From contig NZ_JBALEL010000022.1 of assembly GCF_036917935.1 (NCBI RefSeq), positions 111,460 to 175,459 on the forward strand: DNA of 64,000 nt, written 5' to 3'. This document shows, one piece after another, positions 20,891 through 60,917 of this stretch. A program made the translations under genes and the position numbers. This DNA comes from Nostoc sp. GTDB taxonomy: Bacteria > Cyanobacteriota > Cyanobacteriia > Cyanobacteriales > Nostocaceae. A model generated the notes under the pieces. The model searched no databases, was not told the DNA's origin, and saw nothing but the letters and a program-made list of their open reading frames with translations. Each line of letters begins with the position of its first letter. The first letter of the stretch is position 1.

Positions 20891-22093
20891 GTGAATCTAC
20901 GCCGCCTGATTCCAATTTTTGATAGTTCAGTTTCCAACTGGGCATTAGAAGCGCGGTTGTTGCGCTGGTTAACGTTGATTTGGCTGTTCGTCGGCTTGAT
21001 AATGCTATTTTCAGCATCATACGCCGTCGCTGACGCCCGTCAGAATGATGGGTTGTACTACTTTAAACGTCAACTGCTTTGGGTCTTAGTTTCCTTAATC
21101 GGATTCAATATTATTGTTAATTTGCCGTTGCAGAAAATTTTGGGACTATCCCATTGGTTTTTGTTGCTGTTTTTGGGGTTAATTTTCGTCACACTGATCC
21201 CAGGATTAGGAAGAAAGGCTTTTGATGCAGCGCGTTGGATTGCGATCGGGCCAATTCCGATTCAACCTTCAGAATTAATTAAACCCTTTTTAGTGCTGCA
21301 AAGTGCGCGGCTTTTTGGTCAGTGGGAACGAATCAGTTGGCGGGTTCGCTTGGCTTGGTTGGGTATTTTCGGTCTGGTACTTTTAGGAATTCTTGCCCAG
21401 CCTAACTTGAGTACAACAGCACTTTGCGGTATGACTATTTGGCTAATTGCTCTAGCAGCTGGCTTACCTTACAAATATCTGGGAGGAACAGCAATTGGTG
21501 GAGTGATGTTGGCAGTACTCAGTATTAGCATTAAAGAGTATCAGCGTAAGCGGGTAATGTCATTCCTCAATCCTTGGGCGGATGCTACAGGAGATGGGTA
21601 TCAGTTGGTGCAAAGTCTACTAGCTGTGGGTTCTGGTAGAACTTGGGGTTCTGGATATGGGCTTTCTCAACAAAAGTTGTTTTATTTACCAATTCAGGAT
21701 ACCGATTTTATTTTTGCGGTGTTCGCTGAAGAGTTTGGCTTTGTTGGCAGTATGGTGTTGTTAGCACTTTTAGCTACATTTGCTACTCTCGGATTAATTG
21801 TGGCGCTGAAGGCTAAAAATACAGTATATCGATTGGTAGCGATCGGTGTAACGATTTTGATGGTAGGACAATCATTGCTCCACATTGGTGTTGCTACAGG
21901 TTCTCTACCGACTACTGGCTTACCTTTGCCTATGTTTAGTTATGGTGGTAATTCGATGATTGCCAGCTTAATAGCTGCTGGGTTGTTGATTCGGGTAGCA
22001 CGTGAGAGTAGTGAAGCTGACGTAGTACCGTTGCGAAAACCCCTGTTTGAGAATGGGCAAAGACGCAGAGCTTTTGAAAAAAATAGGAATTGA
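20891..22093 (+). CDS. ftsW: Cell division peptidoglycan polymerase FtsW (SEDS family)
   Basis: ARWIAIGPIPIQPSELIK, QPNLST, GYQLVQS, TDFIFAV and GLPLPMFSYGG motifs. Confidence 0.93.
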   Translation: MNLRRLIPIFDSSVSNWALEARLLRWLTLIWLFVGLIMLFSASYAVADARQNDGLYYFKRQLLWVLVSLIGFNIIVNLPLQKILGLSHWFLLLFLGLIFVTLIPGLGRKAFDAARWIAIGPIPIQPSELIKPFLVLQSARLFGQWERISWRVRLAWLGIFGLVLLGILAQPNLSTTALCGMTIWLIALAAGLPYKYLGGTAIGGVMLAVLSISIKEYQRKRVMSFLNPWADATGDGYQLVQSLLAVGSGRTWGSGYGLSQQKLFYLPIQDTDFIFAVFAEEFGFVGSMVLLALLATFATLGLIVALKAKNTVYRLVAIGVTILMVGQSLLHIGVATGSLPTTGLPLPMFSYGGNSMIASLIAAGLLIRVARESSEADVVPLRKPLFENGQRRRAFEKNRN

Positions 22094-22128
22094 GCTAGTA
22101 CGCCTTTATCAAAGTCAATTTTTTTTAA

Positions 22129-22330
22129 GATAGACGTGGAGCAGCTTACCCCAGGCTACCGCCTTCTGGTGCGTTGGCTTCCACCAGGGCACCAGAACTA
22201 CGCATACTCTTACGGAGAAGCAAGCTACGTGTAACGTCTCGTAGAGAAGAACGATGCTTATACCATTTCTATATGAAGACGCATAGAAAGAACCCCACCG
22301 CTTGCGGCATCTCCCCTTACCTCAGAGGTA
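22129..22330. repeat. Nest of small dispersed repeats between ftsW and the convergent gene
   Basis: TTCTGGTGC...GCACCAGAA hairpin; GGAGAAGCAAGCTAC, GTCTCGTAGAGAAG and CCCCACCGCTTGCGGCATCTCCCCTTACC motifs. Confidence 0.65.
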
Positions 22331-24629
22331 AGGGAGTCTTAAATGGGCTATTTCTAGGTGGCAGAGTAGGTGGAATTGGGTTAATGCCAGGTATAGGAGT
22401 AGGAGTAGGCTCTACTTTTTTGAGTACCGTGATTGCAAATCCTCTTTGCTGGGATTGTTGCTTACCAGATATATCATTCACTAGCAGTCCGATTTGAGGG
22501 GGGAAAGCTTGATTGACTGGAAGCTTCATTGAGCCAACTGGTGGAACGTCATTGCCGTATGGTAGAAGTTTAACCTGAATATTTTCTCCCTCTACTCTCC
22601 AACTCAGGGTAGCAGATTCGCCTTCGTTGAGAACCAAATTTGGTTGCTCGCTACCATTGATTCTAAAAGAGACAATCTTAAATGGTTTCGGCAATATTTC
22701 AATTTTTGATTCAGTCTTTTTAAAACTAGTTTTTTGACTTCCATTGTTAGGAAAAGCTTTGACTTCAAAGGCATATTTTCCAGCTTTATATGCTGATAGA
22801 GGAATATTTGTACATCGCAGTTGCTGATTTTGTTGTGTACATAGCTTTTGAAGTTTCGGGTCTGTAATATTACCTTGATTAAATTTATAAGTAACTGGTT
22901 TACTATATAATGTACCATCATCTGCACTGCCAGCAAGTTGAATTTGTGCTAACAATAATGGCCGGGCAATTGTCCAGGTTAAAAGTATATTTTGACCTTT
23001 TGTATACAGTGGTTTATCTGCTTGGAAACTAAGTACTTCCGCAATTTGTTTTTCAGCTATTTCTACTTGGGTTGTTTGGCTGGCTACTTTGTTATTAGGA
23101 GAAAATAATTTTATCCCATTACGATAAAAGGCTTGTAACTCAAAAGTGTAATTCCCTTTTGTTTTCACTCCAGTTTTAACGTTGCTACAAATTAGCTCTT
23201 GTTTATCTTGCACCTGACAAGGAGGTATTTCATTAGGGCTTCCCTTACCCAGTGTTTCCGGAATGCCATTGCTAAAGTTATATGTAATCGGCTGAATCGG
23301 TTGCGAACCTTTGGCTGTCAGAACCAACTTTTGCAACTGTTGATAATTGTGAATGTCCCATTTCAAAGCGACTTCATCGTCTTCAGTGATTTGAGAGTCA
23401 TTTGCACTAAAATTTTCTAATCTCAAAGGATCGGGGTTTAAAATTCGCCAAATGATGAATCCTATCCCACCTAGTAACCCCAAAACTGCTAAAATTAACA
23501 GAATAAATTGCCACCAAGGACGGGATTTCCATACCAAAGTTCCTTGAGGCAATGTGTTAGGTAGGGGTAAATTTTGTTGGTCTTTGATGTCGAGTTGAAA
23601 GTTGACCACTAACCCTGTGCCAAACCACGGTCGTCGCCACCAAGGTCTGGGTTTGACCGTCAAATTAGCCAGGGCACTTCTATTAGGTAATAATCTTACT
23701 TCAGTCGGATCAAATTTGTAAGTATATAGTTCTTCTTCGTCTCGACTTTTTAAGTTTAATATCAGTTCACGGACAATATTACCCTGGTTAGTTAGTGATA
23801 ATTCGTACTTGCCAAGACTACGGCTAACTTGTCCCAAGATGGTATTAAGTTCTATATCTAGGCGATAATTTGTCGGAATTTGGATATACACCAAATCTAG
23901 CAATACTAAGTCTGGAGAGTTTTCCGAATACAAGCGGATTGTCGGAGAATAGCTTCCCGCAAGGGTATCCCCAGGTGGGTGAAATTTCAACAGTATTTGA
24001 CCTTGAGTACCAGGGTTGAGTTCTAGTGCAGTCACGTCAGACACTAACCCTGTCCCCTCAAATCCAGTTGCAGGATAATTAATTGTGAACCAGTCATCGT
24101 CTAAATCTGGGCAACTCAAGCGGAACCTGTCTACGAGATAAGAGCGATTGTCAACTATTACCTCCACTTGCAGAGGTTCACTAGGATTGAAAATTAGCGG
24201 TTTGTTGGGGTTGGTGTTAGGTCTAAGGGAAAATGTCGGATCATTTACCCGAATTGCTGTCTGTTCTTTTAGCAGAACCTTAATTTGGTTTGGGAAGGTT
24301 ATGGGAGTATCTTGGGGATAATGTACAGGGGAATCTACGACTAGTGTATAGTCATAGGTTCCGGGGAGAGCATTTGCAGCGATTTGAAACTCAAATTTTA
24401 CTTCGTCGCTATTTTGCCCTGGAGCTAATGCTAAACTTTCTCTAGGAGAACTAGACCAGCCGGTTAAATTTTGAAATACTTCGTCAAAAACAAAATATAA
24501 GTCAATAACTGCACTCTGATCTCCCTGATTGATTACAACAACATAGAGTTCAATGGTGTCTCCTGGCATCCCAAATTGAATTCCAGGTGGGTTGATAATA
24601 ACTTGCAGTGGATTGAATTTAGCTTGCAT
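22317..24629 (-). CDS. Membrane-anchored protein: three Ig-like (NEW3/COG1470-like) modules, TM helix, further beta-sandwich domains, Pro-rich tail
   Basis: ATG at 24629 with AAGGGAG RBS. Three ~120-aa modules with V-x-N-x-G/S and L-x-L-x-PG motifs; TM segment WWQFILLILAVLGLLGGIGFIIW. Confidence 0.75.
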   Translation of the reverse strand: MQAKFNPLQVIINPPGIQFGMPGDTIELYVVVINQGDQSAVIDLYFVFDEVFQNLTGWSSSPRESLALAPGQNSDEVKFEFQIAANALPGTYDYTLVVDSPVHYPQDTPITFPNQIKVLLKEQTAIRVNDPTFSLRPNTNPNKPLIFNPSEPLQVEVIVDNRSYLVDRFRLSCPDLDDDWFTINYPATGFEGTGLVSDVTALELNPGTQGQILLKFHPPGDTLAGSYSPTIRLYSENSPDLVLLDLVYIQIPTNYRLDIELNTILGQVSRSLGKYELSLTNQGNIVRELILNLKSRDEEELYTYKFDPTEVRLLPNRSALANLTVKPRPWWRRPWFGTGLVVNFQLDIKDQQNLPLPNTLPQGTLVWKSRPWWQFILLILAVLGLLGGIGFIIWRILNPDPLRLENFSANDSQITEDDEVALKWDIHNYQQLQKLVLTAKGSQPIQPITYNFSNGIPETLGKGSPNEIPPCQVQDKQELICSNVKTGVKTKGNYTFELQAFYRNGIKLFSPNNKVASQTTQVEIAEKQIAEVLSFQADKPLYTKGQNILLTWTIARPLLLAQIQLAGSADDGTLYSKPVTYKFNQGNITDPKLQKLCTQQNQQLRCTNIPLSAYKAGKYAFEVKAFPNNGSQKTSFKKTESKIEILPKPFKIVSFRINGSEQPNLVLNEGESATLSWRVEGENIQVKLLPYGNDVPPVGSMKLPVNQAFPPQIGLLVNDISGKQQSQQRGFAITVLKKVEPTPTPIPGINPIPPTLPPRNSPFKTPLPLR

Positions 24630-24642
24630 GTCATTGACTCCC

Positions 24643-26877
24643 TTATTTGATGCGGTGTAGTTTGACCTGAAAATCTTCGCTACCACTCACAATCATGGTT
24701 CCTTGATTTGTTTTCAAGTCGATACTATTGATTTTTTTAGAGCTTTGGTAAATTGTTTTACCTTCTGCGGCTTTTGTTTTGTCGAGCTGATGTTTGGGGG
24801 TTAAGTACCAAACCACAACTCGGCCATCATCGCTACCACTTACTAAGAGACTACCATCATCACTAAATGCCAGACTACGCACAGATGTTTTTGATGCTGG
24901 CCAGCGGTCTAGTGGCGAACAATTGAGTTCATTTACTTTTTCGAGGGGATTCGGATTTTTGATAGTTTGACACTGATTCAAATTCCAAATCGTAATAAAG
25001 CCCGCAGAATCGGAGGTTGCGAGGATTTTTTCTGCCGAATTAGGAACAAAAGCCAATGCCCAAATATAGTCTTCACGCCCAACTAATGGGTCTAGTTTTT
25101 CTAGATTTTGCACAGATAAACCTGGGAATTGTTTATCAGATTGAGTTGGGTTCCACTGCCACAAGATGAAACGCTTAAAGTTTCCAGCAATTACGAGAGT
25201 TTTTGCATCTGGACTGAGATTTAATGCCCGGACTTGGAAACCTGATAGTTTCAATGTACTTTGTACGTCGATAACTTGCGGTTCTGGCAGAAAATCGCTG
25301 TTAGGCGCTGGTCTTGACCATAATCTAACTTTACCACTGCCATAACCACTGAATAAGTTAAGTGAGTTTGAGGTGAAAGCTAAGTCAAAAACGCGATCGC
25401 CTTTTGCTTTAGGATCTTTAAGGTCTTGAAGTTGGCTAATCTTTGCACCTGATGGGACATCTCTGAGTTCAATTACACCATTATCTAAACCAACAGCCGC
25501 GCGATCGTTTTGTAACGGCATGAAGCGTAAGACTTGTACTGCGTCATCGGTAATCGCCATCAACCCTTTGGGCTGTTGCGGTTGCTCACAAGCAAGGGGC
25601 TGCCCTGCGTATGTTACTCTGTCATCGGGGTCTAAGTTATCAGCACCGATTCTCCAAAGTCTTAAGGTACAATCATCTGAGCCACTGACTACAGATAAAC
25701 CAATACCACTAAAACGCACTGAGTTTACAGAACGGGTATGCATTACATCTCTTGGTTGCAGGATTAATGCTAGGAGTGCGGCTAAAAGTGCGATCGCAGC
25801 CAATTGTAGCCATAGAGGTATAATTGGCAAAGTCTCCACTTCTAATGTCTGCGTGGCTGGGTCTGTACTCCCTAAACGTTGGTCGGATAATTCCGATTTA
25901 GCTTCCAGCAACAAAGTTTTGCCGATTCCTACCCAAGGGCGTTTTGTTTTAACATCGAGGATAACTTTACTTGTCTCTCCTAGATGCAGATTGGCGGTTT
26001 CAGGAAGGTTTTTAAAACTACATTTTCGCCAGTCTCTACCCTGCACCTGCACATTAATTTGCTGGTTGAGGTTGCTAGCGTTTTTAAATAGTAATTCAAA
26101 GGAAGCTGTATCAGATTTCCAGTCAGGCAACCATGCCGATTTACTAGGAATTTTCAGGTGTTTTTCTCTAGTGGTAAAGTCTATAAAACCTACAGGTAAA
26201 ACTTCAATGTTGCCTTCAGCATTAGTGGGATAACCGTTATTGCTAACAGCTTCAATAGTAAAAGGGTAATTTTGACTGGGCGCTTGTACTACAGAAGGAG
26301 GTTGGCATTGGAATGTGGCTTCTGCTAAACCACCTGGATCTAAAGATAATCGACGTTCTGCACTGCCAGCCAGCCAAGACGGATCAACACCTGTAAAACG
26401 TAGCATCACCTCAGTCGGTTGTTGCCCCAAGTTCCGCACCCTTACAGGTATATCGACAGAATTGCGGGGATAAACTTGGAACTCTCGCACAGGCAATTCT
26501 ACACTTAAATGTGTTGGTCTGTTGTCTCGCTCGATTTTCAGACGTAGCACAAGTCTGCACTGTTGTGCTAATTGCGGTGAAAAAATCTTCACCATTAGGT
26601 TGACAGTACCGATAAATCCCGGAATGGGTGTATTGAATACGAAGACTTGGAAGATGGTACTACTGCCGGGTGGCTTGGCTGCTGCTACCTCTGGTTCGAG
26701 TCTATACCAGCGATATCCTGTGTTTCGGGTTTCTCCAGCTGCGGCAATTTCTATCTGAAAATTGACGAAGCGATCGCTGTCATTATTGACAGTTACCTCA
26801 AATGATACAGGAGTATCACCGGGACGAAAGGTTAGGTTCTGAGTAGAAAGGCTGGCATTAATAACACTTTTTTCCAT
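24643..26877 (-). CDS. Membrane-anchored protein: three Ig-like (NEW3-like) modules, TM helix, WD40 propeller
   Basis: Paralogous N-terminal modules; TM segment LWLQLAAIALLAALLALIL; WD repeats SGSDDCTLRLW, SGYGSGKVRLW, SDSAGFITIW, SGSDDGRVVVW. Confidence 0.8.
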   Translation of the reverse strand: MEKSVINASLSTQNLTFRPGDTPVSFEVTVNNDSDRFVNFQIEIAAAGETRNTGYRWYRLEPEVAAAKPPGSSTIFQVFVFNTPIPGFIGTVNLMVKIFSPQLAQQCRLVLRLKIERDNRPTHLSVELPVREFQVYPRNSVDIPVRVRNLGQQPTEVMLRFTGVDPSWLAGSAERRLSLDPGGLAEATFQCQPPSVVQAPSQNYPFTIEAVSNNGYPTNAEGNIEVLPVGFIDFTTREKHLKIPSKSAWLPDWKSDTASFELLFKNASNLNQQINVQVQGRDWRKCSFKNLPETANLHLGETSKVILDVKTKRPWVGIGKTLLLEAKSELSDQRLGSTDPATQTLEVETLPIIPLWLQLAAIALLAALLALILQPRDVMHTRSVNSVRFSGIGLSVVSGSDDCTLRLWRIGADNLDPDDRVTYAGQPLACEQPQQPKGLMAITDDAVQVLRFMPLQNDRAAVGLDNGVIELRDVPSGAKISQLQDLKDPKAKGDRVFDLAFTSNSLNLFSGYGSGKVRLWSRPAPNSDFLPEPQVIDVQSTLKLSGFQVRALNLSPDAKTLVIAGNFKRFILWQWNPTQSDKQFPGLSVQNLEKLDPLVGREDYIWALAFVPNSAEKILATSDSAGFITIWNLNQCQTIKNPNPLEKVNELNCSPLDRWPASKTSVRSLAFSDDGSLLVSGSDDGRVVVWYLTPKHQLDKTKAAEGKTIYQSSKKINSIDLKTNQGTMIVSGSEDFQVKLHRIK

Positions 26878-27328
26878 ACTATTACTTATAATATTTTTTT
26901 ATATTCTGGATGATTAGCACTATTAAAAAATTAATGTCTCGCGAAAATGTGACAGTTGTTCTCTTCCTTGAACGCCTGCTAGGGTAAGGCACATAACTGT
27001 GGCACTTAAACGTCGAACAATTGTTTTAGCACTGAGATGAATTGGGAACTCCACATTGTAGATTGATAGTTGCTGCATACGAATATTGAGCTAATTTTCT
27101 TTATCTTTAATAATTAATCGGAAATTATCTCATATAGACAAATAATATGAGTGAAGTGTTATGGAACTTTCACTAATAAAACCCTAGATTTTGAACAGAA
27201 TTGTTAAGATACCATGTGAAATCTATGTCAATAAAGAATGTAGAAACCTAGCACTGCTACGTTTCTACAAGGGTTCTGGATAACGCATATTTAATTTCTG
27301 GATATGACCTCTTAGCAACGCCTTAACA

Positions 27329-29404
27329 TTAAAATCGCTGCCCAATTCCTAGATGCACCTTGCTTTCTCCCTGGTCATTAATGCCATAGTCAGCCCGAAT
27401 TAAGCCTAGTGGTGAATCTAATCGCACTCCCGCCCCATAACCAAAACCATAACCTGGTTTATCCCGCACACCAGCCGGATCTCCTAATACAGTATCACCA
27501 GAGCCTAAATCTGAGGCAAAGTCGGCAAACAATACACCGCCTACAATTGGTAATACGGGAAAACGATATTCTGCGGAAGCTAACACATAACTGCGACCAC
27601 TGCCAACTTCTCCAGAATCGTAACCGCGCACTGAATTGGAACCACCCAAGTTAAAGCTTTCGTAGGGCGGTAAATTCCCAATGACGGTACCAGCTTGCAG
27701 ATTCACTGCAAAAACTTGTGGCTGTTTGCTGTTAAATAACTGGACTGGTAAATATTGGCTGTAGTTGGCTTTGAGGCGATTTAGAGAAATATTACCTTGA
27801 CCGATAGGTATAGATTGTTCTGTACTCAGACTTAAAACGGAACCTTGAGTTGGATTGATGGGGTTATCTCGTTGGTCTTTGGTGGCGATGAAGGATACGG
27901 TAGTTAGGTCGTCAATACCAGTTCCACTCACAGAGAGGGGATTGCCTTGAGCGTCGGTTGGGGTAATATTACCTTGGCGATCGCGAATACTAGTTCGGGT
28001 ATAGTTTAATCCTAATGAGGTATTCCAGTCATCAATTGGTCGCTGCAAGCTGATACCACCGCCAATTTGACCTTCTCGCACTTTGTCGCCGTTAGCTAGC
28101 GTAATCTTGTCATCAAAGGTTTCCGAAAGTTCTCGATTCCGAAAACCATTCAGAGTATAGCCCAAGCGATCGGGGTTAGTTGTCCGATAGGGACTGATAA
28201 ATTTGGTATTAAACTGCAAGTCTCGGCTACTTACACCAACATTCGCAGCTAAAGTATCATTAATACCGCCGACATTCTGATCTTGATAGCTGATTGTACC
28301 TACCAATCCCTGATCGGCATTGTAACTACCACCCAAGTTAACACCACGCGCCCCAGTTTCTTTGAGTTGATAGACTAAATCAAGTTTTGTCGCATCTCCT
28401 TCTAAGGCAACATTCACAGTTTCAAATAAACCAGTACGATATAGCTGTTGTATGTCTTGTTTAACGACATTTTCTTGGAAGATTTGACCAGGTTTCAACT
28501 TGAGTTGTTGTTGTAGGAAATCTGGTTTAGTGCGTCCTCCGACGGGATTACCCTTACTATCAACAGTTTTACCCTCATCGCTGATAAAGCGAAACTTAAT
28601 ATCACTCACCAAGCCTTCAGCAACATTCACAGTGAGAATACCTTGAGAACTGGGTTTAATTGATAGCACCCGCGCCAAGTTATAACCATTTTCGGCGTAC
28701 CACTTGTTAATTTGTGCTACTGCTTGTTGCAGTCCAATGGGACTGATGGTGGTTCCAATCTGAGATTGCAAACGTTGTTGGGCGACTTGATAGGTAAGTA
28801 CTTTAGCACCAGATAATTGCAGCGATCGCACAATCAGCGGTTGCACTTGATAAACTACATTTAATCCAGTCTGTGTACTAAAGCTATTCACACTGACATT
28901 GCTAAATAAACCTGTATCTAAAATTGCAGCGACATCTTTTTGTAACTGGCTTTGACTGGTTTCTCCACCAGCCTCAGTTTTAATGACTTTGCGAATGATC
29001 TCCTGCAATTCTTGATTGGCTCCCACTACCTGTACATCTGTAGCTGTAACTACTAAATCGTTTTCAGTAGCAGGAGTTTTGGGAGATGAGGGGGAAAAAG
29101 AGGGAGTGGGAAGGAGTGTTACAGGAGAATTACCCTTGTCTGCTGACTTTAAGACTACTGGGGAATTTTTGTTTGCACCTGTTTGTACGATGACGAGATT
29201 TTGGGAAAATTGTTGTGCAACTATAGTTTCTGGGGAAGCAATTGTCTCTACCCGTGCGGGAGTGTCTTCAATTCTCGACACCACCAAGTTACCAGCTTTT
29301 GCAGTTGGCGTAACGGTTTTAGCAGGTGCAGCCGTTGCTTGCTGAGTGACATTGCCAGCAGCTAAAGTAGCTAAAGTAAAAATTGCAGTAGCAGAAACTC
29401 GCAT
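27329..29404 (-). CDS. Omp85/BamA family outer membrane protein
   Basis: Signal peptide, POTRA-like domains, LGGSNSVRGY motif, C-terminal GLIRADYG...HLGIGQRF. Confidence 0.92.
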   Translation of the reverse strand: MRVSATAIFTLATLAAGNVTQQATAAPAKTVTPTAKAGNLVVSRIEDTPARVETIASPETIVAQQFSQNLVIVQTGANKNSPVVLKSADKGNSPVTLLPTPSFSPSSPKTPATENDLVVTATDVQVVGANQELQEIIRKVIKTEAGGETSQSQLQKDVAAILDTGLFSNVSVNSFSTQTGLNVVYQVQPLIVRSLQLSGAKVLTYQVAQQRLQSQIGTTISPIGLQQAVAQINKWYAENGYNLARVLSIKPSSQGILTVNVAEGLVSDIKFRFISDEGKTVDSKGNPVGGRTKPDFLQQQLKLKPGQIFQENVVKQDIQQLYRTGLFETVNVALEGDATKLDLVYQLKETGARGVNLGGSYNADQGLVGTISYQDQNVGGINDTLAANVGVSSRDLQFNTKFISPYRTTNPDRLGYTLNGFRNRELSETFDDKITLANGDKVREGQIGGGISLQRPIDDWNTSLGLNYTRTSIRDRQGNITPTDAQGNPLSVSGTGIDDLTTVSFIATKDQRDNPINPTQGSVLSLSTEQSIPIGQGNISLNRLKANYSQYLPVQLFNSKQPQVFAVNLQAGTVIGNLPPYESFNLGGSNSVRGYDSGEVGSGRSYVLASAEYRFPVLPIVGGVLFADFASDLGSGDTVLGDPAGVRDKPGYGFGYGAGVRLDSPLGLIRADYGINDQGESKVHLGIGQRF

Positions 29405-50557: not shown

Positions 50558-52762
50558 ATGACGATGGAATCTTTACCAAACTTTGAAGAAGTAAATATTC
50601 AGAAATACTTAGAAGTTATTCAACGGCGTTGGCTACCTCTAGTTGGAATTTTTGCCATATCTGTTACCCTTGGATGCTTGTATGCATTTTCACTAAAACC
50701 TTCATACAAAGCAGAAGGAAGTTTGATGATTAAAACAAATCGCTCTTCCTCACTCACGGGCTTACCGGATGACATAGGACGCCTAGAAGCTTTGAATGTG
50801 AACGACAATCCCCTGGAAACTCAGGTGAGAGTTATTGGATCGAATCCAGTAATTGAGAAAACAATTAATTCCCTTAACCTCAAAGATAGTCAAGGCAAAC
50901 TGCTCTCGATTCCCGACTTGGCAAAACAACTAAAAATAGAAGGAATCAAAGGCACTGATGTTGTACAACTTTCTTATAAAGGCGGCGATCCGGAACTAGC
51001 TGCTAAAATTGTCAATGAAGTTATTGACAGTTATATCGATCTAAATATCAAGGCTAATCAGAATGAAGCGCGGACAGCCAAACAGGTTCTTGTAACAGAA
51101 GTACCTAAAGCTGAGGAAATTGTCAGAAGAGCCGAATCAAAACTGCGGCTATTTAAAGAAACGAATAAAGTTGTTGTCCTAGAACAAGAAGCAACCGCAG
51201 CAGTCGATACAATTTCCAAGTTAGGAAACCAAATTTCTCAAGCTTTAGCTCAACTAGATGATGTCAAGGGTCGTCTAGAACAGTTAACCAGTGAAGCTCA
51301 GGTAGATTCACGGCAAGGTGTAATCGAATCTGAATTGAGTCAAGCACCTGGAGTTCAGAAAGTGCTTGCCCAACTCCAAGAAACAGAGAGCCAACTGGCA
51401 CTTGAGCGTACCCGTTTTTCACCTGAACACCCTACAATCACTAACTTAGAAGAAAAAGTCGCAGCTCTTAACAACTTGTTAAAAGAGCGCACAGGACAAG
51501 TAGCAGGTTCAGCGCAGATAACACAGGGAAGTTTACAAGTTGGACAACTGCGGCAAAGCCTAATTGCAGATATTACTCGTGCTCAGGCAGAACGCGTTGG
51601 TCTGGAGAGACAAATTGCCACACTCAAGCAACAGCAAGATGCCTACATCAAACGAGCAAATAATTTACCAAGGCTAGAACAGAATCAACGAGAGCTAGAA
51701 CGGAAGTTGCAAGCAGCTCAAACAACTTACGAAACACTCTTAAAGAAACGCCAAGAAATTGATATTGCACAGAACCAAAAGATTCCTAATGCTCGTGTTA
51801 TTTCCTATGCCTTAATCCCTGATAAAGCAGAAGGACCTCGCAAAATTCTGTTTATTGTTGGTGGTGGAGGAGTTGGTCTTTTCTTAGGTATAATTATTGC
51901 CTTTAGTTTAGACTTGATAGACCGCTCGGTGAAGACCGTCAAAGAAGCCAAAGAAGTCTTGAGATATAGTGTTTTGGGAGTGATTCCCACACAAGGTAAA
52001 AATGGTAAAGATCATTCTTCTATAGCAGGACTCGATAGACCTATTCCCAAAATCATCGGCAGAGATATTCCTTACTTCCCTGTTGGTAATGCATACCAAA
52101 TACTACAAGTTAACTTGAAGTTCCTCTGTTCTGATAAACCGCTCAAAAGTATTGTAATTACAAGTTCTGTTGCCAAAGAAGGAAAGTCTGACGTATCTGC
52201 AAATTTAGCTGTGACTATGGCTCAGGCTGGGCGTCGGGTGTTATTGGTGGATGCAGATATGCGTCATCCTATACAGCATCATATCTGGGGGCTAACAAAT
52301 ACAACAGGACTAAGTAATGTAATTACTGGACAAGCTTTATTAGATACATCGGTACAAGAAGTAATGCCTAATCTGGAGGTTCTTACTTCTGGAGTTTTAC
52401 CTCCCAATCCAGTAGCAATGCTAGATTCTCAACGCATGGTGACATTAATTAGTAACTTTGAGAGAGAATACGATCTTGTGATTTTTGATACTCCGCCTCT
52501 GTCAGGAATAGCAGATGCTGCTGTTTTAAGCACCCTGACTGACGGTATCTTATTAGTCGTTCGTCCTGGAGTGGTTGACTTGAGCAGTGCGAATGCAGCT
52601 AAAGAGTTTTTAACTCAGTCAGGTCAGAAGGTATTAGGGATAGTCATCAATGGTGTAAATACTAAAAATGAACCTAATAATTATTTTCATGACACCAAAA
52701 AACGACAAATTGAGGAAGATTTGGTATCGAGTAGCTTAACAAAATTTCGCAAAGAGCGTTAA
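50558..52762 (+). CDS. wzc: GumC/Wzc polysaccharide chain-length determinant and tyrosine kinase
   Basis: Two TM segments around a long coiled coil; Walker A SSVAKEGKS, LLVDADMR, IFDTPP. Confidence 0.92.
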   Translation: MTMESLPNFEEVNIQKYLEVIQRRWLPLVGIFAISVTLGCLYAFSLKPSYKAEGSLMIKTNRSSSLTGLPDDIGRLEALNVNDNPLETQVRVIGSNPVIEKTINSLNLKDSQGKLLSIPDLAKQLKIEGIKGTDVVQLSYKGGDPELAAKIVNEVIDSYIDLNIKANQNEARTAKQVLVTEVPKAEEIVRRAESKLRLFKETNKVVVLEQEATAAVDTISKLGNQISQALAQLDDVKGRLEQLTSEAQVDSRQGVIESELSQAPGVQKVLAQLQETESQLALERTRFSPEHPTITNLEEKVAALNNLLKERTGQVAGSAQITQGSLQVGQLRQSLIADITRAQAERVGLERQIATLKQQQDAYIKRANNLPRLEQNQRELERKLQAAQTTYETLLKKRQEIDIAQNQKIPNARVISYALIPDKAEGPRKILFIVGGGGVGLFLGIIIAFSLDLIDRSVKTVKEAKEVLRYSVLGVIPTQGKNGKDHSSIAGLDRPIPKIIGRDIPYFPVGNAYQILQVNLKFLCSDKPLKSIVITSSVAKEGKSDVSANLAVTMAQAGRRVLLVDADMRHPIQHHIWGLTNTTGLSNVITGQALLDTSVQEVMPNLEVLTSGVLPPNPVAMLDSQRMVTLISNFEREYDLVIFDTPPLSGIADAAVLSTLTDGILLVVRPGVVDLSSANAAKEFLTQSGQKVLGIVINGVNTKNEPNNYFHDTKKRQIEEDLVSSSLTKFRKER

Positions 52763-52817
52763 TTTCTCTTATAAATTGTGAAAGCGGCTATCACTACAAC
52801 CATTTAAACCCAACTTT

Positions 52818-53786
52818 TTGACTGTAGAAATAATGGATAAAAATAAAATTAAAACATCTTGTTTAATTAATAATTACAATTATGCTGAATTTCTCTCTGA
52901 GGCAATTGATAGCGCTTTAAATCAGACAGTTAAATTTGATGAGATTATTATTGTTGATGACGCATCCACAGATAACTCTGCGGAAGTCATCAATAAATTT
53001 ACTCAAGTAGCTAATGTTAAATGTATCTTGAAAGAAAAAAATGAAGGACAATTATCATCCTTTAATGAAGGATTTTTAGCTGCAACTGGTGACATTATAT
53101 TTTTTTTAGACGCTGATGATATTTATGAACCTCAGTATTTAGAAACCGCTCTAAATTTTTACAAGAGACGTAGTGAATGTGATTTGATATTTTGTGCTTA
53201 TAAAAAATTTGGAGCCGTGGAAGGAACATTTCAAAGTGATGCAGTTGATTTAGATTTGGGTTATTCAGTAATCAGAACTTTATATAATGGTGAATGGATT
53301 GGTTCGATAACTTCAACATTATCAATACGTAGAGAAATAGTCAGAAAATTTTTACCTATTCCAAATATAGAAGATTGGCGTGTAAGGGCTGATGACTGTC
53401 TGGTATGGGGAGCTTCTTTGGTAGGGGCTAAAAAGTTTTATATGTCTAAACCTCTAGTGATGTATAGAATACATGAGAATAATCAGTATCATAATAAAAA
53501 GTTTTTAGACATAGACAAAAACTATGAATACAAGAGATTCTGGAAACGCAATTCCCTCTTTAATTATATTCTGCAAAAAAATAATTTTAGCTCACCGTTA
53601 TTCTTAGCTTTCACATCTCTCAATGAGTTAAAAACAATATCATGCCCAAAATATCAAGATTTTGTTTCGTATTTGAAAATAATATTTTTGTTTGAGCATA
53701 GTTTGTTTTGGAAAATAAAGGGGATGATTTTACTATTTAGCTATTTTTTTAAAACTTTGATGACTGGTAAATTAAAAACATGGTAG
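52818..53786 (+). CDS. Glycosyltransferase family 2
   Basis: NNYNYAEFL, IIVDDASTDNS, FFLDADD. TTG start is uncertain. Confidence 0.9.
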   Translation: MTVEIMDKNKIKTSCLINNYNYAEFLSEAIDSALNQTVKFDEIIIVDDASTDNSAEVINKFTQVANVKCILKEKNEGQLSSFNEGFLAATGDIIFFLDADDIYEPQYLETALNFYKRRSECDLIFCAYKKFGAVEGTFQSDAVDLDLGYSVIRTLYNGEWIGSITSTLSIRREIVRKFLPIPNIEDWRVRADDCLVWGASLVGAKKFYMSKPLVMYRIHENNQYHNKKFLDIDKNYEYKRFWKRNSLFNYILQKNNFSSPLFLAFTSLNELKTISCPKYQDFVSYLKIIFLFEHSLFWKIKGMILLFSYFFKTLMTGKLKTW

Positions 53787-53902
53787 GCGGTAAATGATGT
53801 GAGTTACTGGATAAATACATTTTATTTTGTATCTGTGAAAACGAAAAAATAGCCTGAGCTTGATAGGGATAGAGAATGTCATATTATTAATTAATAAAAA
53901 TA

Positions 53903-55225
53903 ATGTTAAGTAAATTCAAATTTAAAAACTTATCAACATTTAAATCTCGTTCTGGACTGCGTGCAATTATTGCCAATACAGGTTGGTTGTTCGCTGATCG
54001 CATTCTACGTATGGGTGCAAGCTTGGTAGTAGGAGTATGGGTAGCACGCTATTTAGGAGTACAGCAGTATGGTCTATTTAACTATGCTTTAGCTTTTGTT
54101 GCCTTATTTAGCCCAATTTTCACTCTCGGACTGGATGAGGTAGTAGTTCGCCATCTTGTTCGTCAATCATCAAACAAAGAGGAAATTTTAGGAACCACTT
54201 TTTGGCTAAAATTTCTGGGTGGAATTGCTTCTGTCTTATTAGCAGTTAGCACGATGTTTTTCTTAGGTGAGCAGGAAACACTAAAGATATGGCTAGTTGC
54301 AATTTTAGGAATAGCAGGAATTTTTAGGGCGTCTGATACTATTGAACTGTGGTTTCAATCACAGGTGCAGTCAAAATACACTGTGATTGCTAAAAATACA
54401 GCGTTTCTGCTAAATACTGTCATTAAAATCGCACTAATTTTAACAAAAGCACCATTGCTAGCTTTTGCTTTGGTAACATTAGCGGAATTTGCGATGAGTG
54501 CAATTGGCTTGTTGATTGTTTACCAAGTGAAAGGAGCTTCATTGTGGTTATGGCGTTGGAGTTTTGCGGCTGCCAAAACTCTTCTGAAAGAGAGTTTACC
54601 TCTAATTTTTTCGGGGTTCGCCATCATGATTTTTATGAGAATAGATCAGGTGATGTTAGGTCAAATGATCGGAGATAGTGAGGTAGGAGTTTATTCTGCT
54701 GCTGTGCGTATTTCTGAAATTTGGTATTTTATTCCAGGGGCTATTGTTTCTTCTGTCGCTCCTGCAATTTATGCAGCTAAGGAAAAATCAGAAAGTCTTT
54801 ACTATCAGCGAATAGGACAATTACTCAGTCTAATGACATGTATATCTTTGGCAATTGCTCTGCCAATGTCATTCTTGTCTGACAAGATAATTATGGTGAT
54901 GTTTGGAAGTGGATATGCAGAAGCAGGAGCAATATTAGCAGTTCATATTTGGACTTCTTTGTTTGTATTTATGGGTCTGGCAACATCACCTTGGTTTATT
55001 GCTGAAGGTTTGAATCACGTTTCTTTAGGTAAGACTTTATTTGGGGCGATACTAAACATTGTTCTTAATTTATTACTTATTCCTAAATATGCAGGACTAG
55101 GGGCTGCGATCGCAACAATAATATCTCAAGCGGCTGCTGCTTTTATATGCAACGCATTTGATTCAAGAACACAAAAAATATTTAAGATTCAGGTGCGATC
55201 GCTTATTCCTTTTTACAAATACTGA
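53903..55225 (+). CDS. wzx: Wzx-type flippase
   Basis: NTGWLFADRILR, ARYLGVQQYG, RIDQVML, LLIPKYAGLGAA; many TM helices. Confidence 0.92.
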   Translation: MLSKFKFKNLSTFKSRSGLRAIIANTGWLFADRILRMGASLVVGVWVARYLGVQQYGLFNYALAFVALFSPIFTLGLDEVVVRHLVRQSSNKEEILGTTFWLKFLGGIASVLLAVSTMFFLGEQETLKIWLVAILGIAGIFRASDTIELWFQSQVQSKYTVIAKNTAFLLNTVIKIALILTKAPLLAFALVTLAEFAMSAIGLLIVYQVKGASLWLWRWSFAAAKTLLKESLPLIFSGFAIMIFMRIDQVMLGQMIGDSEVGVYSAAVRISEIWYFIPGAIVSSVAPAIYAAKEKSESLYYQRIGQLLSLMTCISLAIALPMSFLSDKIIMVMFGSGYAEAGAILAVHIWTSLFVFMGLATSPWFIAEGLNHVSLGKTLFGAILNIVLNLLLIPKYAGLGAAIATIISQAAAAFICNAFDSRTQKIFKIQVRSLIPFYKY

Positions 55226-55246
55226 TCGTTGTTATTTAACCTTTAT

Positions 55247-56176
55247 ATGATGCAAACACCAGTAACTTTTATTATTTTTAAACGCCCACAAACAACAGAA
55301 AAAGTTTTTGAGGCTATTCGCCAAGCCAAGCCAAAAAAACTTTTTGTAATTGCCGATGGCCCCCGCACTGAGCGCGAAGATGAAGTAGAAAAGTGTGAAG
55401 CAACTAGGGCAATTATTGAGAGAGTTGATTGGGAATGCGAAGTTATCAAAAATTATTCTGATATCAACTTAGGTTGTGCAAAACGAGTATCGAGTGGTTT
55501 AGATTGGGTATTTAATAATGTTGAAGAGACAATTATTTTAGAAGATGATTGTATCCCTCACCCAACTTTTTTCAGGTTTAGTGAAGATCTGCTGGAAAAA
55601 TATAGAAATGACACCAGAATCGCCACAATCTCTGCTCAAAATCTTCAACTCGGACGAAAACGCACAAATTACAGTTACTATTTTTCTCGCTACAATCACT
55701 GCTGGGGTTGGGCAAGTTGGAGACGTGCTTGGCAACATTATGATTTGACCATCAAACTCTGGAAAGAGGTGCAAGCAGAAAACCTTTTACATGACATTCT
55801 CTTAGACCGAAAAGCAGTAAATTCTTGGCAACGAATATTTCAATCTGTTTATAACAATCCTACAGGTATAACCTGGGATTACCAATGGACATTTGCTTGT
55901 TGGATGCAGGGAAGCTTAAGCATTATTCCCAATGTCAATTTAATCTCTAATGTTGGTGTTGGTGCAGACGCAACTCATTTCACATCCAATCAAGAATTTT
56001 CGTTCATCAATATGTCGATGCAAGCAATGGAATTTCCCTTAAAGCATCCACCATTTATTGTTAGGAATGTAGAAGCAGATAATTTTACCCAAAAAACAGT
56101 CTATAAAGCAACTGCATTGGATATTTTTAAAGAGGAATTGAAGAAAAGATTGAATTACTCAACAATAAAAAAATAG
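55247..56176 (+). CDS. Nucleotide-diphospho-sugar transferase (GT-A fold)
   Basis: IIFKRP, IADGPR, NLGCAKRVSSGLDW, ILEDDC, CWGWASW. Confidence 0.85.
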   Translation: MMQTPVTFIIFKRPQTTEKVFEAIRQAKPKKLFVIADGPRTEREDEVEKCEATRAIIERVDWECEVIKNYSDINLGCAKRVSSGLDWVFNNVEETIILEDDCIPHPTFFRFSEDLLEKYRNDTRIATISAQNLQLGRKRTNYSYYFSRYNHCWGWASWRRAWQHYDLTIKLWKEVQAENLLHDILLDRKAVNSWQRIFQSVYNNPTGITWDYQWTFACWMQGSLSIIPNVNLISNVGVGADATHFTSNQEFSFINMSMQAMEFPLKHPPFIVRNVEADNFTQKTVYKATALDIFKEELKKRLNYSTIKK

Positions 56177-56194
56177 ATAGATTAAATTTCAGAA

Positions 56195-57424
56195 ATGAAA
56201 GTAAAATTAACAGAAAAAATATTAACTATCTTGCTATTACTCATTGCTGTAGGGGCATTAACAATACACCCTGCACAAGAAGTTTCCATGTCTACCCTTG
56301 GAGGCGATAAGCTAGATACTTTATTCAATATAGTTTCATATTTAATCCTATTTTATTTCCTAATTTCATACTGGAAAGGTTTTCTTTATGTAATTACTAG
56401 AAGTCCATTACAGTTTTTGTTACTAGCAATAGTTATATTTTCTCTTTTATGGTCAGAAGACCTAAGTTCTAGTCTTACTTATCTAAGAGGTCTAATCCGA
56501 ATATATTTTCTTGCCATCTATTTAGCAATGCGTTATTCCCTTAGAGAACAAATGAGGCTGATAGCTTGGGCGCTTGGTGTAGCTGCATCATTATCTATAC
56601 TATTTTCTGCATTCGTACCAGGTTATATTCACGAATCACCTGAATTACTAGGTATGTGGAGTGGAATTTATGGTCATAAAAATGAATTAGGTTACATGAT
56701 GGCTTGGAGTGCAGGAGTTTTTTTGCACCTTGGTCTTAGTGTACATCGATATCGCTGGTTGATGTGGACACTATGTGGGATATCTATATGTCTAATTATC
56801 CTCTCACGTTCAACAACATCTTTAACGATTCTATTGACAATGATATTACTTTTACCTTTCTATAGATCCCTGAAAAAAACTAATTATAAGTTGCAAGTTA
56901 TTATGATTACTTCAACTTTAATGTTACTGATGATCTCTTCAATATTACTTCTCAATAATGCCGAAACTGTAGTTGGTACTTCTGGCAAAGACCTTACCTT
57001 CAATGGACGCTCTGACCTCTGGGAGCTAGTGATTTCCAAGATTTTGGAAAGACCTTGGCTAGGTTATGGATTTTCGGGATTTTGGACTAGTAATGCTGCA
57101 TCTAAATTAAGAGCTACTTATGATTGGGCGAGCAATGCTCACAATGGTTTTTTAGAAATATTATTAGAATTAGGATTCTTAGGTTTTTTGACTTTTGCAG
57201 CAGGGTTTGTCCGGTTTTTTGTAATGGCATTGACTCGAATTATTTCTGTCGCTAAAAAACCGGAAGATTATTGGCCAATGCAGATGCTACTTATCATTGT
57301 CATAGTGAACTTTTCAGAAGCCAGGTTATTAACTCCTAGCTGGAATTGGTTAATGTATGTCACCACGTCATTATCTTTGACTGTTGAATATCAACGAAAT
57401 CATAAAAATATTTTAATCGATTAA
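56195..57424 (+). CDS. O-antigen ligase/Wzy polymerase family protein
   Basis: About 11 TM helices; GIYGHKNELG, GRSDLW, PWLGYG, AHNGFLE. Confidence 0.88.
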   Translation: MKVKLTEKILTILLLLIAVGALTIHPAQEVSMSTLGGDKLDTLFNIVSYLILFYFLISYWKGFLYVITRSPLQFLLLAIVIFSLLWSEDLSSSLTYLRGLIRIYFLAIYLAMRYSLREQMRLIAWALGVAASLSILFSAFVPGYIHESPELLGMWSGIYGHKNELGYMMAWSAGVFLHLGLSVHRYRWLMWTLCGISICLIILSRSTTSLTILLTMILLLPFYRSLKKTNYKLQVIMITSTLMLLMISSILLLNNAETVVGTSGKDLTFNGRSDLWELVISKILERPWLGYGFSGFWTSNAASKLRATYDWASNAHNGFLEILLELGFLGFLTFAAGFVRFFVMALTRIISVAKKPEDYWPMQMLLIIVIVNFSEARLLTPSWNWLMYVTTSLSLTVEYQRNHKNILID

Positions 57425-57472
57425 TTTTTCTGGCAGTCAGAAATAGTTTTAGTAATTAGGAGGTTAATAAAA

Positions 57473-58744: not shown

Positions 58745-58768
58745 CCTAGTAAATCAATACTTCATAAT

Positions 58769-59785
58769 ATGTCACTACCTATAGCTTTTATAATTTGTAC
58801 AGAACCTGGCCGTTTAGAAGGTCAATCTTTGATGCTTGCAGAAAGTATTCGTAAATTCTGCGGTGAATTGAAAAATACACCTATATATAGTTTTCATCCT
58901 AGGGTAGGTGAACCGATATTAAAGCAAACCCAACAAGCGTTTGAAGCATTGCAGGTGACTCATCAACAAATCCCGATAAATCGAGAATTTCATGAATATT
59001 ATTTAGCCAATAAACCCTTAGTTTGTGCCTATGCAGAACAAAATATCGATGCAGAAATATTGGTTTTTTTAGACAGTGACAAATGCTTTTTTTCTGAACC
59101 AAAAGAATTTTTATTGCCAGTAGATTGTAATGTACGGATACGTCCTGAGTATGGTCAAGGAATTGGTTCTACAGGTCTGCAAGACCCTCAAGAATGGTAT
59201 TGGCAAAAACTATATGAAGTACTGGGAGTAAAGCGTGAGGTATTTGTTGACACACCAATTGGTAATAAAAGAATCAGAGCCTACTGGAATTCTGGTTTGG
59301 TTGCTGTGAGAAGAAGTGCGGGTATATTTACAGCTTGGAAAGAGAACTTTGAAAAAGTAATGCGCCTGGATATTACTCCTCCCCAGGGTATTTATTTTGT
59401 TGAGCAGTCTGTTTTGTCTGTAACTTTATGTGCCTTGGAAGAGAATATCGAACATCTTCCTCCTAATTATAGTTATCCATTACCTTTACATAACCGTTTA
59501 TCAACAGGAATACAAATTAAACATTGGGATGATATTATATCCATTCATTATTTCAACTTATTTTTCTATAACGATTGGAATGCACAAATAAAAAGATTGC
59601 AAAAATTCAATATAAATTCAGATAAATATCGATGGTTATGTCAAGAGGTTGTCAGACTTAATATGCCTCGCGTATCAGTTTGGCATCGATATGTGTTGGT
59701 GGTCAGAAGAATGGAACAAAAACTAAAAAACTTTAATTTAGATATTAATCTCAGTGGCTGGATAGAAAAGATGGTTAAATTTTAA
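58769..59785 (+). CDS. Hypothetical protein, probable GT-A (GT8-like) transferase
   Basis: NKPLVC, VFLDSD, YWNSGLV and EQ motifs resemble the GT8-type DxD and FNSG pattern. Confidence 0.55.
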   Translation: MSLPIAFIICTEPGRLEGQSLMLAESIRKFCGELKNTPIYSFHPRVGEPILKQTQQAFEALQVTHQQIPINREFHEYYLANKPLVCAYAEQNIDAEILVFLDSDKCFFSEPKEFLLPVDCNVRIRPEYGQGIGSTGLQDPQEWYWQKLYEVLGVKREVFVDTPIGNKRIRAYWNSGLVAVRRSAGIFTAWKENFEKVMRLDITPPQGIYFVEQSVLSVTLCALEENIEHLPPNYSYPLPLHNRLSTGIQIKHWDDIISIHYFNLFFYNDWNAQIKRLQKFNINSDKYRWLCQEVVRLNMPRVSVWHRYVLVVRRMEQKLKNFNLDINLSGWIEKMVKF

Positions 59786-60812: not shown

Positions 60813-60917
60813 TACTTGCACGAAAGTCATTAGTCAATAATACTTGGATAAGTTATAAATATCTTAACAAGTGGACAAATGTAGTTTTAAATTATAAACA
60901 TAGTTAGCAATCATTTT

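Follow-up and report, generated by a model that had tools for sequence, protein, structure and literature searches.

Here we describe two adjacent genes of Nostoc sp., A and B, whose products probably form the membrane-docking or trigger module of a contractile injection system (CIS) that is encoded far away in the same genome. Both products are single-pass membrane proteins. They are paralogous, and each carries an N-terminal array of three beta-sandwich domains. Sequence comparison places the pair in the lineage of Streptomyces-type CIS and indicates that it co-diversifies with Cis11. One explanation named in the original prediction was a CIS anchor module that is detached and acts in trans; it is now strongly supported by co-occurrence, gene neighbourhood, co-diversification with Cis11 and purifying selection.

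The window, the whole stretch of 64,000 nucleotides that was analysed, contains no CIS gene. This agrees with the first reading of the sequence, in which the pair was adjoined by ftsW and an Omp85 gene and flanked by no CIS gene. The tight coupling that had been described is also confirmed. Between the stop codon of A (TAA, 24645-24643) and the ATG of B at 24629 there are 13 bp, which include a GGGAG ribosome-binding site, and the two genes (744 and 770 aa) are translationally coupled. All 80 related loci have A directly upstream of B, and in each of them both frames are intact. A, B and the CIS genes are each present as a single copy in the genome. A scan of positions 22000-27500 for promoters and terminators was uninformative, as the matches did not exceed those in shuffled sequence. 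The features of the locus are listed below.

20891..22093, plus strand: ftsW, neighbour of the pair.
22317..24629, minus strand: gene B, 770 aa; triple beta-sandwich, transmembrane (TM) helix, three Ig-like domains and Pro-rich tail.
22320..22409, minus strand: Pro-rich disordered tail of B, residues 741-770; pLDDT below 50.
22416..23432, minus strand: residues 400-738 of B, three related Ig-like domains (hhalign), proposed to be extracytoplasmic; invariant Cys pairs 471/481 and 597/606.
23451..23513, minus strand: TM helix of B, residues about 373-393 (hydropathy, AlphaFold2 model).
23523..24629, minus strand: residues 1-369 of B, the three N-terminal beta-sandwich domains, paralogous to the array in A (hhalign, model); weak NEW3 match at 56-98.
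24630..24642, minus strand: A-B spacer, 13 bp with the GGGAG ribosome-binding site, read from the sequence.
24643..26877, minus strand: gene A, 744 aa; triple beta-sandwich, TM helix and 7-bladed WD40 propeller (ORF, translation, Pfam, AlphaFold2 model).
24646..25740, minus strand: WD40 propeller of A, residues 380-744 (Pfam, profile and fold search); invariant Cys636/Cys653 pair.
25756..25824, minus strand: TM helix of A, residues about 352-374; Kyte-Doolittle values up to 2.6 in a 19-residue window, model helix 355-372.
25828..26877, minus strand: residues 1-350 of A, three beta-sandwich domains without signal peptide (DSSP of the model), proposed to be cytoplasmic and to face the baseplate.
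27329..29404, minus strand: Omp85/POTRA gene, neighbour of the pair.

The AlphaFold2 model of A (pLDDT 86.6) has beta-sandwiches at about residues 1-115, 124-226 and 232-349. The fold of residues 1-350, the segment used in the genome searches for A, resembles Ig arrays of the ASH/MG type in Foldseek. The C-terminal part is modelled as a 7-bladed WD40 propeller, with TM-scores of 0.83-0.85 to 7-bladed WD40 structures in the PDB, and it belongs to the Pfam WD40 family (PF00400; 1.7e-25, 88.8 bits against a cutoff of 27). Orthologues of A are 60-97% identical across Nostocales, and the orthologous loci include one of Nostoc punctiforme NIES-2108. In the model of B (pLDDT 79.0) the three N-terminal sandwiches reach about residue 367, the TM helix spans 371-397 and three further sandwiches occupy 403-736. 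These C-terminal Ig-like domains are related to each other (hhalign, d4 to d5 98.7%, d4 to d6 85.5%), and their number ranges from 3 to 5 among relatives. The models bear out the predicted order of one TM helix followed by a WD40 propeller in A or by more beta-sandwiches in B.

The N-terminal halves and TM helices of A and B are homologous and colinear over about 360 residues (hhalign probability 95.8%, E 7e-9), with residues 1-350 of A corresponding to residues 16-370 of B; BLASTP alone gives just E 0.002. Modules 1 and 2 are mutually related across the two proteins (75-92% probability), and module 3 finds a counterpart only in module 3 of the other protein. K-x-R-P-W-like motifs are found only at the end of module 3 or just before the TM helix (A 311-315; B about 326, 333 and 368). 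The triple arrays of the original prediction are retained, but its three related modules each ending in this motif are not.

Family searches place the proteins among generic folds. The expected NEW3 (NPCBM_assoc) domain did not hold up: the Pfam search gave a sub-threshold match of PF10633 to residues 56-98 of B (22.5 bits, cutoff 24.4; E 1.3e-4) and no match to A, and two homologues, P0018 and P0111, bear a precomputed PF10633 match. No NCBIfam family is matched by A or B. Single-sequence and profile searches of both against all PDB chains returned nothing beyond WD40 proteins. In Foldseek searches of both models against the PDB the top 50 matches contain no CIS chain; they comprise ASH-domain proteins of cilia, MG arrays of macroglobulin/complement proteins, and WD40 propellers. 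Such generic Ig arrays and propellers do not inform function. The named distant representatives of the family are all cyanobacterial, and most representatives are unnamed metagenome proteins. Searches of the literature on COG1470 in cyanobacteria, on WD40 or FHA proteins with cyanobacterial CIS and on entry 9GTP found no paper describing the family. Homologues of B are named 'COG1470 family protein' in the sources. This name, the weak NEW3 match of B and the beta-sandwich array recall the COG1470, NEW3 (PF10633) and CARDB-type membrane proteins. However, those are generic extracellular domains of unknown function without a link to CIS, and the match of B is below Pfam's cutoff.

A search of the genome for phage-tail genes, as had been proposed, located one complete CIS on other contigs (C58 and C62/C19). 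Its parts are cap, sheath, three tube proteins, CIS_tube, VgrG-like spike, PAAR, gp25, Baseplate_J, Tail_P2_I (Cis12, 343 aa) and DUF4159. Cis11 matches PDB entry 9gtp at 5.6e-125 and the sheath matches 8bky/9gtp over its full length at 3.3e-121, whereas the match to the sheath of the Anabaena thylakoid-anchored CIS (tCIS) is 5e-53 and covers the C-terminal part only. On sequence comparison the system is of the Streptomyces cytoplasmic type (cCIS, type IId-like) and not of the Anabaena thylakoid type. Its sheath operon ends with an FHA protein and a CHASE2 Ser/Thr kinase. The FHA and DUF4159 proteins were considered as membrane anchors of this genome and rejected, each having just one marginal hydrophobic segment.

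The distribution of A follows this type of CIS. With the N-terminal segment as query, A was detected in 29 of 401 sampled cyanobacterial genomes, and all 29 have a sheath match, although related genomes in such counts are not independent samples. All genomes with a full-length orthologue of the own-type Cis11 carry A (27/27). In the genus itself, seven of eight genomes have both A and Cis11, and the eighth (G098) has neither. A was not found in any sheath-less genome among the 401, so the genomes with the pair and no CIS that the original prediction had proposed to look for did not appear in the sample. Sampled genomes whose sheath and Cis11 are of other types also lack A. Pairwise distances of the A N-terminus and of Cis11 correlate with r = 0.956 over 406 pairs. 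Where one genome has a second system, A and Cis11 have the same nearest neighbours.

In most cyanobacteria the pair is, by gene order, encoded right after the baseplate genes, in the slot usual for tail fibres or cisA. The order gp25-Cis11-Cis12-DUF4159 followed by A, and usually by B, is seen in seven genomes (G107, G119, G312, G144, G029, G384 and G208). B is missing next to A in the last three of these, so an A-B heterodimer is not obligatory. In at least 15 systems the coordinates put A 1-7 kb downstream of Cis11. Relatives of the pair fill the CisA-like slot downstream of the baseplate genes in at least nine inspected loci; in the window the pair is between Omp85 and ftsW. Other arrangements also bring the pair close to CIS genes. 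In Dulcicalothrix PCC 7102 it comes after the FHA gene, and in G206 it precedes cap-sheath. A-B-ftsW is followed by a cap-sheath-tube-FHA operon in Nostoc sp. C117, and in four further Nostocales the pair and that operon are convergent. In Sphaerospermopsis and Cuspidothrix a 65%-identical kinase is upstream of the pair. The order Omp85-A-B-ftsW is kept in most Nostoc genomes and is confined to the Nostoc clade. There the pair is separated from the CIS genes and, as judged from substitution ratios, is still under purifying selection, with dN/dS of 0.08-0.13 for A and 0.12-0.19 for B (0.08-0.19 for the detached genes together).

A and B each have one TM helix and no signal peptide, and their invariant Cys pairs are confined to the C-terminal parts. 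The lack of a signal peptide suggests that both insert with the N-terminus in the cytoplasm. The charge bias around the TM helices is ambiguous under the positive-inside rule, slightly C-in for A and slightly N-in for B. Canonical WD40 propellers are usually cytoplasmic, which counts against an N-in, C-out orientation of A. In the mechanism proposed here, the paralogous triple arrays of A and B would pair up and bind the baseplate through Cis11, Cis12 or the DUF4159 protein. The TM helices would hold this complex in the membrane, either cytoplasmic or thylakoid, while the propeller of A and the disulfide-type Ig array of B would face the periplasm or lumen, and there they might anchor the complex or sense envelope damage. 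Docking would license firing of the CIS under stress, by analogy with CisA in Streptomyces, and would probably do so in concert with two products of the sheath operon, the FHA protein and the CHASE2 Ser/Thr kinase. In its most specific form, the proposal is that A and B are a previously undescribed, two-protein membrane-spanning receptor that ties a Streptomyces-type CIS to a membrane of the cyanobacterium and couples its firing to a periplasmic or lumenal signal read by the WD40 domain. Such a receptor would match CisA in role without being homologous to it, and could act from a distant locus. We put forward this fuller reading tentatively, as one that may hold but is slightly more apt to fail.

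The pair could be a sensor or regulator and not a structural anchor. Extracytoplasmic signals received by the WD40 and Ig domains would then feed an FHA/CHASE2-kinase phospho-relay that controls assembly or firing of the CIS, by analogy with the accessory proteins of threonine phosphorylation in type VI secretion systems (T6SS). The FHA protein and kinase at the end of the sheath operon, the position behind the FHA gene in Dulcicalothrix and the kinase upstream of the pair in Sphaerospermopsis and Cuspidothrix are all consistent with such a relay. However, most genomes place the pair after baseplate genes and not beside a kinase, neither protein has a signalling output domain in Pfam, and the cytoplasmic parts are large structural Ig arrays. 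A purely regulatory role is unlikely, though it is the most serious of the alternatives. Sensing and docking are compatible, and both could hold.

A replacement for tail fibres is an improbable alternative. Here lysis or ghost-cell formation would expose the membrane-held C-terminal WD40 and Ig domains, which would then bind target cells, by analogy with the exposed thylakoid-anchored CIS of Anabaena, for which target binding was proposed (PMC8894136). The pair does occupy the tail-fibre slot downstream of the baseplate genes, and the C-terminal Ig repeats of B vary in number as in receptor-binding proteins. However, a CIS of the Streptomyces type acts inside its producer, and the C-terminal parts are conserved at the dN/dS values given above, which is not the pattern of diversifying domains.

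The conserved Omp85-A-B-ftsW order in Nostoc might be taken to indicate an envelope scaffold for cell division or outer-membrane biogenesis that is unrelated to CIS. This is very improbable, as the synteny is limited to one clade and elsewhere the pair is inside CIS clusters, no sampled sheath-less genome has it, and the pair is patchy in its distribution, unlike the universal genes ftsW and Omp85. The independent scaffold offered in the original prediction is rejected by the complete co-occurrence with this CIS type among the 401 sampled genomes.

There is hardly any likelihood that A and B are homologues of the crown or anchor proteins of the Anabaena PCC 7120 tCIS, for which only the general analogy of a membrane-linked accessory of a cyanobacterial CIS speaks. 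The original prediction had likened them to a crown of adjacent paralogues, each with three NEW3 domains and a TM segment. That likeness fails. The crown consists of trimers of a single gene product, Cis19 (all3314), and its description mentions no NEW3 domains, TM helix or paralogue pair (PMC8894136). With A, B, A3 and A2 as queries, phmmer and profile searches of all PDB chains, which include the tCIS entries 7b5h/7b5i, returned no CIS chain at E values up to 10, and fold comparison gave no link either. Cis19 resembles the pair in being an accessory found only in cyanobacterial CIS, but its trimers surround the spike cage and it goes with tCIS, a type that is not found together with A and B. 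The thylakoid anchor of the tCIS is the short, tail-fibre-like Cis13 (All3316). It too is an accessory of a cyanobacterial CIS, bound to the baseplate by its N-terminus and entering the membrane with a single TM helix (PMC8894136). Cis13 differs in its short length, its TM at residues 122-154, its trimeric helical fibre and its CIS lineage (PMC8894136). It has no similarity to A or B, which have large domains to either side of the membrane. Placement of the pair in a tCIS-type cluster with an extended Cis12 and a TM-bearing Cis13 was also considered and rejected, the system here being of the Streptomyces type with a Cis12 of 343 aa.

A decaying relic left when the CIS genes moved away, also raised originally and suggested by the distance of the pair from all CIS genes, has a negligible chance of being right given the intact frames, the dN/dS of 0.08-0.19 and the complete CIS kept in the genome.

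The docking module favoured here is a candidate answer to how intracellular CIS reach the membrane outside Streptomyces. To our knowledge, no adaptor is known for cytoplasmic CIS outside actinomycetes. The cCIS of Roseiflexus lack close cisA homologues (PMC12998442). A CIS of the Streptomyces type, different from the thylakoid-anchored CIS of Anabaena, is present in many filamentous cyanobacteria. Cluster-based catalogues of CIS would miss the Nostoc pair because it is at a separate locus. If the receptor reading is true, CIS-mediated regulated cell death in filamentous cyanobacteria becomes testable genetically through two genes.

Two further known systems bear comparison. In the T6SS threonine-phosphorylation pathway, PpkA and Fha1 act with envelope-spanning accessory proteins that gate assembly. 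The likeness is one of analogy, in that genes for a Ser/Thr kinase of the membrane and for an FHA protein accompany those of a contractile machine. Unlike a T6SS, the CIS described here lacks a TssJLM complex.

CisA (SCO4242) is the membrane adaptor of the cytoplasmic CIS of Streptomyces coelicolor (eLife 2025, PMC12237407). These CIS kill their own producer under stress, and their firing needs CisA, which is absent from purified particles and hence an accessory (PMC12237407). CisA has a largely disordered N-terminus and a C-terminal domain resembling substrate-binding proteins (PMC12237407), whereas in A and B the TM helix is preceded by three beta-sandwiches and followed by a WD40 propeller (A) or an Ig array (B). 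Homology to CisA is unlikely because its described architecture differs from the models of A and B. CisA is also one protein with an experimentally shown function, and A and B are two paralogues whose function is proposed from comparison. The CIS lineage is nevertheless the same, with Cis11 and sheath matching 9gtp/8bky at 1e-121 to 1e-125. The slot of CisA, directly after the baseplate genes, is the position of A-B in relatives, although in this genome the pair is away from the CIS. Widely conserved and co-evolving with the baseplate, the pair is a concrete cyanobacterial candidate for the role that CisA has in Streptomyces.

Genes A and B, two minus-strand paralogues that encode single-pass membrane proteins, can be shown on comparative-genomic grounds to belong to the Streptomyces-type lineage of contractile injection systems (CIS). 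In the window they lie between the two neighbours named in the original prediction, ftsW and an Omp85 gene:

20891..22093, plus strand: ftsW (PF01098, 3.5e-100), convergent with B
22317 to 24629 (ATG at 24629), minus strand: gene B, 770 aa
24643..26877, minus strand: gene A, 744 aa, stop TAA
27329..29404, minus strand: Omp85/POTRA gene, 450 bp upstream of A

The 13-base spacer between A and B contains GGGAG before the B start codon. A longer, GTG-initiated B frame overlaps A and is disfavoured by the conservation of Met1 among homologues. The genes apcE, apcA and apcB are found further along in the window; they and the names given to homologues mark the source as a Nostoc. Approximately ten co-directional genes at 50558-63068 have a low GC content (33-38% versus ~42% elsewhere).

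The source genome (7.4 Mb, 68 contigs) has CIS genes at two loci, neither of them on the window contig C22. A, B and every CIS gene are single-copy.

C58, locus 1: Pvc16-type cap, sheath, two gp19 tubes, two small proteins, FHA protein, CHASE2 Ser/Thr kinase
C62-end/C19-start, locus 2: third tube, large repeat protein (cut off at the contig break), CIS_tube, VgrG-like spike, PAAR, gp25, Baseplate_J (Cis11, 732 aa), Tail_P2_I (Cis12, 343 aa), DUF4159 protein (399 aa)

The sheath matches 8bky/9gtp, the Streptomyces coelicolor cytoplasmic CIS, over its full length (3.3e-121), and Cis11 matches 9gtp at 5.6e-125. The sheath of the thylakoid-anchored CIS (tCIS) of Anabaena PCC 7120 aligns with the C-terminal domain only (5e-53). 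Judged by these matches, the system is of the Streptomyces cytoplasmic type and different from tCIS. The search of the genome for a CIS called for in the original prediction succeeded on other contigs, but the type is not the one with which the pair had been compared.

The large gene cut by the contig break (C62:254728-256737 and C19:1-1953; L009:14729-16738 and L008:1-1953 in the fetched loci) has a tandem 111-nt (37-aa) repeat of 75-91% identity at both ends and probably encodes a tape-measure-like protein, with repeats that interrupted the assembly. Since the gene is split across C62 and C19, these contigs join and the baseplate half of the CIS is a single locus. Two short ORFs within the CIS loci, one of 110 aa (L006:2543-2875) and one of 99 aa (L008:2561-2860), have dozens of matching sites in the genome (45-97% aa identity over 40-55 residues) and are probably not genes, but overlie a dispersed MITE-like short repeat. 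The sheath operon on C58 ends with the 655-aa FHA protein (L006:3341-5308) and the CHASE2-domain Ser/Thr kinase (L006:5502-7682). A kinase with 65% identity to the latter is encoded just upstream of A-B in Sphaerospermopsis NIES-73 and Cuspidothrix; together with the FHA and kinase genes of the operon, this suggests a phospho-threonine control step in Streptomyces-type cyanobacterial CIS.

The association of the pair with this CIS type was examined in 401 evenly sampled Cyanobacteriota genomes with the N-terminal part of A as the query. The sample includes related lineages and is hence not independent, and distant copies can be missed by the first-pass filter. A was present in 29 of the 401 genomes, all 29 with a sheath match (82/401 overall), and in all 27 genomes where the source Cis11 has a full-length orthologue (>=51% identity). 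The two A-positive genomes lacking a Cis11 match are fragmented drafts, both still with a sheath match. Within the genus, A and Cis11 occur together in 7/8 genomes, and G098 has neither. In this sample A was absent from genomes with sheath and Cis11 of other types.

Genomic neighbourhood leads to the same lineage. Mapping of 16 loci by tblastn revealed the order gp25-Cis11-Cis12-DUF4159 followed by A, and usually B, in seven genomes (G107, G119, G312, G144, G029, G384 and G208), and A-B followed by cap-sheath in G206. Coordinates place A downstream of Cis11, at a distance of 1-7 kb, in no fewer than 15 systems that represent approximately ten families. The pair comes straight after cap-sheath-tube-tube-two small genes-DUF6760-FHA in Dulcicalothrix desertica PCC 7102, and it converges on the cap-sheath-tube-FHA operon in four other Nostocales. 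A precedes B in 80/80 close orthologous loci, among which most Nostoc have the window order Omp85-A-B-ftsW. In Nostoc sp. C117 the cap-sheath-tube-FHA operon comes immediately after A-B-ftsW. The pair is 1-2.5 Mb from Cis11 in complete Nostoc genomes. Because the pair is inside or beside CIS clusters in relatives and in Nostoc sp. C117, its detached state in the window is a recent rearrangement inside the Nostoc clade. The DUF4159 gene (L008:9709-10908, C19), always between Cis12 and A in other cyanobacterial CIS clusters, remains in the baseplate operon of the source genome, from which A-B moved away. B is not always present in the inspected loci of relatives, and A may therefore be the core component.

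The pairwise distances calculated for the N-terminus of A correlate with those for Cis11 (r = 0.956; 29 systems, 406 pairs). G206, G378 and G044 have two systems and two A copies each, and the nearest neighbours of each second A copy match those of Cis11, even with the genes on different contigs; species phylogeny alone cannot account for this. These three are among the genomes with two A(-B) sets, one within a cluster and the other detached; divergence between the copies is 52-66%. In G206, a complete Nostoc genome, the two same-type CIS with their A(-B) sets are at C1:3446521-3467688 and C1:4672427/5810823. The detached genes have low dN/dS across four orthologues (A 0.08-0.13, B 0.12-0.19), so they are not relics, an alternative the original prediction had raised. 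Its suggestion of a detached CIS module is supported by co-occurrence, neighbourhood, co-diversification and selection.

AlphaFold2 models built from homologue alignments (32 sequences for A, 29 for B) were confident for both proteins (mean pLDDT 86.6 and 79.0):

A, residues ~1-115, 124-226 and 232-349: beta-sandwiches
A, residues 355-372: TM helix
A, residues 380-744: propeller
B, N-terminal part: three beta-sandwiches
B, residues 371-397: TM helix
B, residues 403-736: three more Ig-like domains after the TM helix
B, C-terminal tail: Pro-rich, disordered

The propeller of A has the canonical 7-bladed WD40 form (88.8 bits in Pfam; TM-scores 0.83-0.85 against 5yzv, 7big and 3ow8). The N-terminal halves including the TM helix are homologous and colinear (hhalign probability 95.8%, E 7e-9). 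Domain by domain, d1 and d2 are related to one another across A and B (75-92%), d3 of A matches only d3 of B (95%), and d4-d6 of B form a repeat family of their own (d4 to d5, 98.7%). The K-x-R-P-W motif is confined to the close of the third module and the vicinity of the TM helix, and does not end each module as first described. A and B have no signal peptide, their ORFs cannot be extended upstream, and invariant cysteine pairs occur only C-terminal to the TM helix (B 471/481 and 597/606; A 636/653); an N-in/C-out topology is favoured on these features. The TM-flanking charges do not decide orientation.

The proposed resemblance to the tCIS crown/anchor did not hold. The tCIS crown consists of trimers of one protein, Cis19 (all3314), for which NEW3 domains and a TM helix are not mentioned; the TM anchor is the short fibre-like Cis13 (TM residues 122-154), and Cis12 bears an extension (PMC8894136). 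The NEW3 match, in B, scored under the Pfam threshold, and A had no match. Single-sequence and profile searches of every PDB chain matched neither protein to a CIS protein, a valid negative because the same library yields 7b5h/7b5i (All3325) for the source sheath. The Foldseek matches were WD40 propellers and multi-Ig proteins of a generic kind, with no CIS chain among the top 50. Homology of A and B to tCIS crown or anchor proteins was rejected.

For topology, binding partners, membrane and trigger we infer the following as the most likely arrangement. The paralogous cytoplasmic beta-sandwich arrays of A and B would bind each other and the baseplate, and the TM helices would fix the assembly in a membrane, either cytoplasmic or thylakoid. 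Beyond that membrane, the propeller of A and the Ig array of B could anchor the complex or sense envelope state. Docking would license CIS firing, probably in cooperation with two products of the sheath operon, the FHA protein and the CHASE2 kinase. The data also fit a role that is purely regulatory, within an FHA/kinase relay, and such a role may exist alongside docking. Binding of target cells after lysis would fit the tail-fibre slot, but clashes with the conserved C-terminal parts. A cell-division or outer-membrane scaffold is contradicted by the distribution of the pair.

As putative docking proteins, A and B are best compared with CisA, the membrane adaptor of Streptomyces. In the literature searched, nothing connects CIS with this family, whose members are labelled 'COG1470 family protein' or 'WD40 repeat protein'; all members with organism names are cyanobacterial. 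The Streptomyces CIS of the same lineage is free in the cytoplasm, and its contraction and stress-induced cell death need CisA, whose homologues were searched for within actinomycetes only (PMC12237407); close cisA homologues are reported to be absent in Roseiflexus (PMC12998442). In most cyanobacteria A and B take the same genomic slot, directly after the baseplate genes, and are alike in overall layout, whereas their folds are unrelated to CisA. We regard A and B as probable membrane adaptors of an intracellular CIS.
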